A program made the position numbers and the translations under genes. From sequence record MN715356: a DNA stretch of 64,000 bases; one strand, 5' to 3'. The notes below the pieces were generated by a model that saw only the letters and a program-made list of their open reading frames with translations, searched no databases and was not told the DNA's origin. This DNA comes from Escherichia phage vB_EcoP_EcoN5. This document shows, in pieces, positions 16,984-18,010 of the stretch (the stretch's first letter is position 1; each line of letters starts with the position of its first letter).

Positions 16984-17366
16984 TCTCCAATAATTTCCAT
17001 ATCAAATTTATCTCCTTTCTTAGTAAGGAGGATTGCTGGTTTATTCTTACTCTTCATATACTCAAACATGTGCATAGAACCTCTTGACTCTCCATCCCAG
17101 AAGACTATAACTGCATCTGCATAATCACCCATGTCTACGTTTCGAAGTATCCCAGCCTTTTTGCCGAGAGTGTTCCACGAAGGAATGAAACGTTTGATGG
17201 GTATATCATTGTGCTTAGCAACAACCTCTCCGTGAAGGTCTGGCCCTCTTGCACCACCTGACACAACTTCTGAAATGAGCTTAGGGATTTCCTCTGGAAG
17301 TAAAGCCCACATCTGAGTAAAAGAATGCCAGTCTATCGACCGGCTTCCTGCGATTATCACTTTCAT
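16974..17366 (-). CDS. DprA/Smf-like Rossmann-fold (SLOG superfamily) protein
   Basis: 'VIIAGSRS', '[12 protein letters not shown]', 'GILRNVDMG...[12 protein letters not shown]' resemble the DprA nucleotide-binding domain. Confidence 0.4.
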
Positions 17367-18010
17367 GTAATCAATCCTTGAAACTCTTCTTTATCGAAAT
17401 GCTTCTCTACCACATACTCATACAGATCTTTTAACTCTGCATAACGACGGTAGAAAGTTCCATGTGACATGCCAATAGTTTTCTGAATGTGGTCATGGGG
17501 AATACCCAAGAAGATCATTGAGAACATATTGGCTAACTTCTGAGTATCCATCGTATCACTTAAATCTTGGAAGAAATAGAAGATACGAGACTCCATGAAC
17601 GGGTCACCAACAGAGTCTTGCTTATCCATCGCAATCTCTAAAGGACTATCCACCATATCAGGAGTGCGGAACATATCAGCCTCTGGAATAGAGTAGATAC
17701 GTCGGTCCCCTACAGTCTGTCTATTTGAGCGTATAGACCAGATAATATTCTTGACTCGATAAGTCATATGCTCTTGGTCTTTCTCGTCCTCTAGGACTCT
17801 CTCATCCTGCTTAGCGAAGACAAATCTCCAAGCATTCAAGAGCACTTCCTGTGCCACATCTTCTGCTTCATGGTAATCTCTGATATCGTACATGAAGAAC
17901 TTGTGAACTACTTTCCAGTTCACTCTGTAAAACTCTTCATAGTTTGAGATATACTTAATAGGAATTCCATGAATTCGATATCTTGTAGGTGTTGTTTTCT
18001 TCGCCATCAT
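17363..18010 (-). CDS. ECF-type sigma factor
   Basis: Region-2-like '[17 protein letters not shown]' and region-4-like HTH '[22 protein letters not shown]'. Confidence 0.55.

Follow-up and report, generated by a model that had tools for sequence, protein, structure and literature searches.

The open reading frame at 17363–18010 (minus strand) of the Escherichia phage vB_EcoP_EcoN5 sequence (MN715356) is, with a probability of about 0.97, the orthologue of gp36 of phage phiEco32, a sigma factor that replaces sigma-70 on the E. coli core RNA polymerase, and the sites P26, P40, P58 and P68 are its promoters. The analysis covers a stretch of 64,000 nucleotides, referred to here as the window, to which all coordinates apply. 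Identities and positions are direct observations, whereas the biochemical function of the window protein is carried over from phiEco32 by near-identity. The sigma factor, the co-factor, the consensus and three of the promoters were already known from a mapping study of 2012 and a structure of 2025; the mapping in phiEco32 was reportedly done by Pavlova et al. in 2012.

In a BLAST comparison with the rebuilt phiEco32 genome (EU330206.1), the whole window is collinear with the region between phiEco32 position 16004 and the right end, and most of it is 93–95% identical. The DNA identity is about 94–95%, corresponding to ∼5% divergence, and by its sequence the window is therefore assigned to a phiEco32-like coliphage of the genus Kuravirus. 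The 7-kb stretch around the sigma reading frame is matched by 97 phage records at 90–95% identity, nearly all of them phiEco32-group Escherichia phages. Only the leftmost 16 kb of phiEco32 lie outside the window. They hold most of gene 18 and all of genes 1–17, among which are those for terminase, portal, head, tail fibre and lysis. The final 500 bp (63494–64000) correspond to the right end of phiEco32, and positions 63872–64000 also match bases 2–130 of its left end, so that the window reaches the genome end. Differences from phiEco32 comprise a tandem duplication of 1518 bp and, at other genome positions, a few minor rearrangements. The two copies of the duplication, at 47896–49413 and 49414–50931, are perfect (1518/1518) and absent from phiEco32, reflecting either a very recent event or an assembly artefact. 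In addition, a block of ∼550 bp (phiEco32 74648–75192) is relocated with respect to phiEco32, which concerns positions 57441–57986.

The sigma reading frame is present in the window as 215 codons. The GenBank and PDB versions of the protein begin at the second ATG (18007), which is probably the actual start, giving 214 residues; the two ATG codons that open the frame (17990–18050, minus strand) are adjacent and are preceded by AAGGAAAG. A preliminary description of the window, made from the letters alone, had proposed a phage-encoded sigma factor at this position, and the comparisons bear this out: the product matches PHROG 1740 ('RNA polymerase sigma factor') with an E-value of 6e-46 and shares 213 of 214 residues (99.5%) with phiEco32 gp36. 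Searches with tblastn yield 99–100% identity to the 'RNA polymerase ECF sigma factor' annotated in phiEco32, SU10, Paul and many other phages, and no close match beyond the phiEco32 phage group. One solved structure is matched, chain F of the cryo-EM entry 9m7y (E 2.6e-145), from which the window protein differs by a single conservative substitution, K28R (numbered from the second ATG). All 20 promoter and RNA polymerase contact residues that were checked against the published list (PMC12276001) are kept. These include the clamp-helix contacts Asp44, Glu47, Glu49, Asp50 and Glu54, the −10 contacts Glu79, His80, Tyr83, Arg84, Trp90, Ser91, Ser94 and Asn95, the −35 contacts Tyr186 and Arg187, and, among the flap-tip contacts, the checked residues Met138, Ile142, Phe166, Leu167 and Phe204. 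In phiEco32, gp36 is an experimentally proven sigma factor that serves the E. coli core RNA polymerase in middle and late transcription (PMC8948821, PMC4331800, PMC4281155, PMC12276001).

By sequence alone the sigma relationship is sub-threshold in general libraries. The Pfam model Sigma70_r2 gives a weak match limited to residues 25–63 (E 0.0012; 19.1 bits, where the cut-off is 24), and the Pfam search returns no region-4 match for the protein even at E-values up to 10. The sigma70-ECF model TIGR02937 reaches 23 bits (E 4.9e-5), short of its cut-off of 42.9, with a match that covers residues 24–193. The published structure assigns a sigma4-like fold with a shortened helix to the C-terminal domain (PMC12276001). 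By curated sequence criteria the protein thus falls outside the ECF group, and the term 'ECF-like' used in the preliminary description is apt for its two-domain architecture but not for curated membership. Within the sigma-70 family, the gp36 orthologue is a highly divergent protein with two domains.

The window contains four exact copies of the 9-mer TAATGTATA, at 9996 (plus strand), 19829 (minus), 19901 (plus) and 27194 (minus), where shuffled sequences give a chance expectation of 0.66 and reach four copies in 1 of 100 shuffles. Variants with one mismatch show no overall enrichment (13 found versus 20 expected), so that only particular copies matter. Judged by the phiEco32 annotation, which served to assign coding or intergenic status to the motif sites, all four exact copies are intergenic. 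The 9-mer had been named in the preliminary description as the consensus of phiEco32-type sigma factors, in agreement with the published gp36 consensus tAATGTAtA, from which transcription starts 6–8 nt downstream (PMC8948821, PMC4331800, PMC4281155). Six gp36-dependent promoters have been mapped in phiEco32, upstream of genes 6, 13, 26, 40, 58 and 68 (PMC8948821 and its Table S3). As in phiEco32, where the genome order is the same, the window sites precede the homologues of genes 26, 40, 58 and 68; P6 and P13 lie outside the window.

The late promoter P26 occupies 9996–10004 (plus strand), 38 nt before the ATG at 10043 of a 1473-aa gene, in a context that corresponds to phiEco32 26014–26022. 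It is contained in Table S3 (PMC8948821) and is transcribed in vitro by the gp36 holoenzyme (PMC12276001). The middle promoters P40, at 19829–19837 (minus strand), and P58, at 27194–27202 (minus strand), lie 59 nt before the ATG at 19769 of the gene 40 homologue and 36 nt before the ATG at 27157, respectively; both are in Table S3 (PMC8948821), and the P40 sequence is also given for phage SU10 (PMC4281155). The gaps of 38, 59 and 36 nt, counted from the end of the motif to the start codon, agree with the range of 37–60 nt given previously for three sense copies, which thus coincide with P26, P40 and P58. A fourth mapped promoter was overlooked there. The middle promoter P68 carries the one-mismatch version AAATGTATA at 32257–32265 (minus strand), 39 nt before the ATG at 32217 and in the context of phiEco32 46862–46870, with a −35 block TGGTAGTA at 32281–32288. 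P68 is the promoter present in the cryo-EM open complex (PMC12276001). P26, P40, P58 and P68 have the same flanks as in phiEco32, with at most a single base changed. The labels 'SSB' and 'KGG-like', which had been attached to the genes behind P40 and P58, find no backing: Pfam yields nothing for these genes and PHROGs lists them as of unknown function. Other one-mismatch sites inside genes, at 3546, 7010, 24747, 30906 and 56575, and the site TAATGGATA at 31947 were considered as extra promoters and dropped, as they are coding and one-mismatch sites are not enriched as a class.

Alignment of seven promoters (P26, P40, P58, P68 and the plus-strand site at 19901 from the window, and P6 and P13 from phiEco32) reveals the pattern T-R-R-N-A at −38 to −34 in all seven, in the forms TAAGA (twice), TAGTA, TAGCA, TGGTA (twice) and TGGGA. 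The pattern was found post hoc, and its agreement with the reported gp36 contacts, i.e., the purine N7 at −37 and the T opposite A-34 (PMC12276001), is suggestive. The late promoters P13 and P26 share a longer block, AAGACCTA, at −37 to −30. T-R-R-N-A may represent a weak −35 element, and the P13/P26 block may be a class-specific signal. P40 is located within a near-perfect palindrome at 19819–19837, TTATGTATA-G-TATACATTA, which in SU7-type relatives is kept with another centre, TGTATA-TAG-TATACA; the palindrome may form an operator or a DNA hairpin that overlaps the promoter and the start site.

A terminator-like hairpin, AGCCACCTCCGGGTGGCT, followed by TTTTTT, is found at 18984–19001 (minus strand), directly 3′ of gene 40 and between P40 and the genes that lead to the sigma gene. 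Because this strong hairpin directly follows gene 40, P40 together with gene 40 appears to form a mostly self-contained unit that lies upstream of the sigma gene. In phage WFI101126 the corresponding interval, which separates the homologues of genes 40 and 39, has an annotated terminator and also contains an inserted HNH gene.

The co-factor gp79 is likewise encoded in the window. With phiEco32 gp79 as query, tblastn detects an orthologue at 39342–39590 (minus strand) that is identical over 82 of 82 residues (100%), and the reading frame is confirmed. In phiEco32, gp79 acts as an inhibitor of the sigma-70 holoenzyme and as a co-activator of the gp36 holoenzyme; it displaces region 4 of sigma-70 and stabilises gp36 (PMC12276001). 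The earlier statement that the window encodes no single-subunit RNA polymerase holds for the seven reading frames of at least 470 aa that were scanned, in which no phage-type single-subunit RNA polymerase domain is found and the only domains matched are Big_2, DNA_pol_A, DnaB_C, GATase and, weakly, PolyA_pol. The annotation of phiEco32 genes 1–22, which extends to the part outside the window, also contains no RNA polymerase.

Taken over from phiEco32, the switch would operate as follows. Early genes would be read by the sigma-70 holoenzyme. The co-factor gp79 would block region 4 of sigma-70, pushing it off the polymerase, while gp36 takes the core. The sigma2-like N-terminal domain of gp36 would recognise AATGTA at −14 to −9, with unwinding from −11, and its sigma4-like C-terminal domain would touch the weak upstream −35 element (G-37 and A-34 in P68). 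The structure paper describes base-specific contacts to AATGTA at these positions, supported by mutagenesis, and shows that the C-terminal domain touches G-37 and A-34 in P68 (PMC12276001). As a consequence, transcription would move from host and early promoters to middle and late promoters of the TAATGTATA type. The sigma gene itself lies downstream of P40, behind the hairpin at 18984–19001, and its expression may therefore be partly self-reinforcing.

A candidate for a seventh gp36 promoter, here termed Pdiv, is located at 19878–19909 (plus strand), divergent from P40. It consists of a −35 block TGGTAGTA at 19878–19885 and a −10 block TAATGTATA at 19901–19909, with a predicted start site at 19916; in phiEco32 the plus-strand site is at 36704. 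The preliminary description had placed this copy of the 9-mer at about 19895, which is displaced from its actual position, and had treated it as a mere antisense occurrence; with its P68-type −35 block at the same spacing it is probably a real promoter. The 14-mer TTGGTAGTAGATAT is found upstream of the Pdiv 9-mer with the same sequence and at the same distance as in P68, and G-37 (19879 in Pdiv) and A-34, the bases contacted by gp36 in P68, are in register; G-11 of Pdiv is at 19905. The window contains only three copies of TGGTAGTA, two of which are positioned exactly 15 nt before NAATGTA. The −35 and −10 blocks of Pdiv are invariant in 10 genomes of three genera and in an extended set of 19 distinct sequences that includes metagenomic ones; one metagenome scan contributed only six loci, of the same group. 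In these 19 sequences the spacer varies in sequence, e.g., ATAACACACTAG, AATGACAAGTAG, ACTCACTAACGG and CTCTAAGTGCTA, and is constant in length, and the predicted +1 is always an A in the aligned sequences. Pdiv is not among the six promoters listed in PMC8948821, PMC4331800 and PMC4281155, and it may have been tested in the primary reports (Pavlova 2012; Savalia 2008). The phage records examined carry no annotation at Pdiv or in the stretch downstream, and a limited literature search for RNA-seq, antisense or sRNA work on phiEco32 or kuraviruses retrieved nothing relevant. Pdiv is probably a real, undescribed seventh gp36 promoter that fires away from the middle genes, and the chance that it works as such is estimated as somewhat better than even.

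Downstream of Pdiv lies a conserved non-coding stretch of ∼160 nt at 19916–20075 (plus strand), a candidate structured RNA or DNA-level element. No conserved reading frame is present in this stretch, in which insertions and deletions measure 1 nt or 2+1 nt. It is the best-conserved stretch of its neighbourhood across the genera Kuravirus, Suseptimavirus and Nieuwekanaalvirus. Positions 19976–20075 are 93–100% identical in genomes whose flanking genes are 56–97% identical (84–97% for the start of gene 40 and 56–94% for genes 41–42). The plus strand is predicted to fold with −45.8 kcal/mol (z −2.3), versus −35.3 kcal/mol (z −1.5) for the minus strand. A 6-bp hairpin begins at the predicted +1 and includes two pairs with compensatory changes (UA/GC and CG/UA/AU); one further observation on this 5′ hairpin is a pair that alternates between GC and GU, which on the other strand would be a C-A mismatch. 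In helices 2 and 3, 18 of 19 pairs never vary and thus provide no covariation information either way.

The central part of the stretch (19935–20000) occurs in two unrelated versions of ∼45 nt and ∼70 nt between conserved flanks. These versions (loci L010, L012, L014, L016 and L022–L025) are bordered by TTGCA(G/C)G and CCGRAAGGGCAGGAG, like a swapped module. The invariant 3′ hairpin contains the direct repeat AGGGACT-CCT-AGGGACT at 20047–20063 (plus strand), and in the lineage of Bas87, TH34, XT18, ECBP2 and locus L026 one G is missing from each of the two AGGGACT repeats, a joint loss suggestive of paired recognition sites. A search against Rfam 15 gives no covariance-model match with an E-value up to 1 on either strand of 19500–20500. 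A copy of a host RNA gene is ruled out, since a BLAST search of 19870–20090 against all complete E. coli genomes gives no match. In more distant relatives (gp40 67–70% identical; loci L018–L020), TAATGTATA and the conserved element are both missing, and these relatives were for that reason excluded from the covariation analysis. Within the phage gene blocks, the sole turning point of the cumulative GC/AT skew is at ∼14.5 kb, where gene orientation flips; the GC skew tracks gene orientation only and carries no origin information. It is tentatively proposed, from sequence comparison and at somewhat short of even odds, that Pdiv would fire against all middle and early genes and produce a structured non-coding RNA of ∼160 nt, or would activate an element at the DNA level, e.g., a replication origin. 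Compared with a working promoter, a discrete non-coding RNA or an origin-type function is given somewhat lower odds.

For the system as a whole, an alternative would be that the four exact 9-mers arise by chance in an AT-rich genome and that the reading frame encodes a generic ECF sigma factor of host origin that uses the usual ECF promoters (AAC at −35, CGT at −10). The single shuffle in 100 with four copies, the lack of enrichment of one-mismatch variants and the weak matches of general sigma models are in line with such a view. However, every copy is intergenic and syntenic with mapped phiEco32 promoters, with identical flanks, and the protein shares 99.5% of its residues with a sigma factor whose binding to AATGTA is established by a structure and by mutational tests, and has no close match outside this phage group. 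Chance motifs and a generic ECF factor are exceedingly improbable; the primer-extension, in vitro transcription and cryo-EM results published for phiEco32 already speak decisively against them.

The plus-strand site is open to a more substantial objection, namely that 19901–19909 is not a working promoter, that 19840–20090 is conserved for a DNA-level reason or for a minus-strand transcript, and that the likeness to P68 is a relic of duplication. Candidates for the conserved function would be a replication origin, protein-binding sites (the two AGGGACT repeats), or, for the minus strand, a terminator or the 3′ end of the operon whose last gene is 41. On the minus strand a long hairpin (20006–20070) is followed by UUUUUAU (U-run at ∼20000), resembling an intrinsic terminator, where the plus strand offers UUU only, and this hairpin may also, or instead, end the operon that starts from P58. 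Most of 19840–20090 is invariant and gives no covariation support for RNA structure, as in helices 2 and 3; the joint loss of a G from both AGGGACT repeats in one lineage suits protein half-sites; and the site is missing from the published promoter lists. A relic, however, would not hold its −35 and −10 blocks invariant at fixed spacing around a rewritten spacer in 19 sequences from three genera, nor would it account for the constant A at the predicted start. A hairpin with compensatory changes and a G-U pair begins exactly there, and this hairpin and the plus-strand fold, better by 10 kcal/mol, favour a transcript from Pdiv. Furthermore, a consensus terminator scan of 19500–21000 calls no terminator, including the hairpin at 20006–20070. 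A non-promoter origin of this conservation is thus considered doubtful, although it retains appreciable weight, and a gp36-dependent Pdiv is preferred.

The regulatory system of the window is essentially identical to that of phiEco32 (gp36 213/214 and gp79 82/82 identical residues; PDB entry 9m7y; Xu et al. 2025, PMC12276001). The Salmonella phage 7-11 protein SaPh711_gp47 is likewise a divergent phage sigma factor of a related prolate podovirus, with promoters at similar genome positions. In contrast, SaPh711_gp47 is only ∼15% identical to gp36 and recognises a bipartite promoter, GTAAtg-(16)-aCTA, and phage 7-11 has neither a gp79 homologue nor a middle gene class (PMC8948821). In phage T4, AsiA and MotA provide a parallel in which a small protein disables region 4 of sigma-70 during redirection of the polymerase, as gp79 does (PMC12276001). 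The proteins are unrelated, and T4 keeps sigma-70 for middle transcription together with the activator MotA, in contrast to the complete replacement of sigma-70 by gp36. Bacterial group 4 (ECF) sigma factors share with gp36 the sigma2-like and sigma4-like domains joined by a linker, reflected in the weak full-length match to TIGR02937, but gp36 falls below all curated thresholds and lacks a region-4 sequence match. ECF-type promoters carry AAC at −35 and CGT at −10, and the partner of an ECF factor is an anti-sigma factor. Instead, the gp36 promoter is defined by AATGTA at −14 to −9, the window sites show TAATGTATA, accompanied at most by a weak T-R-R-N-A at −38 to −34, and the partner gp79 is an activator. 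The late sigma factor gp55 of T4 redirects the host core to promoters dominated by one extended −10-like element. The T4 origins oriF and oriG combine a middle promoter with a downstream unwinding element; they offer an analogy for the plus-strand site only, as a phage middle-type promoter that points into non-coding DNA. The GC skew of the window, which follows gene orientation only, gives no sign of replication initiation at this site.

The first reading of the raw sequence was sufficient to recognise a real regulatory system. What may go beyond published work is confined to the conserved divergent promoter candidate and the non-coding element behind it. If real, Pdiv and this element would extend a transcription programme so far considered fully mapped, by either a non-coding product or an origin-type element.
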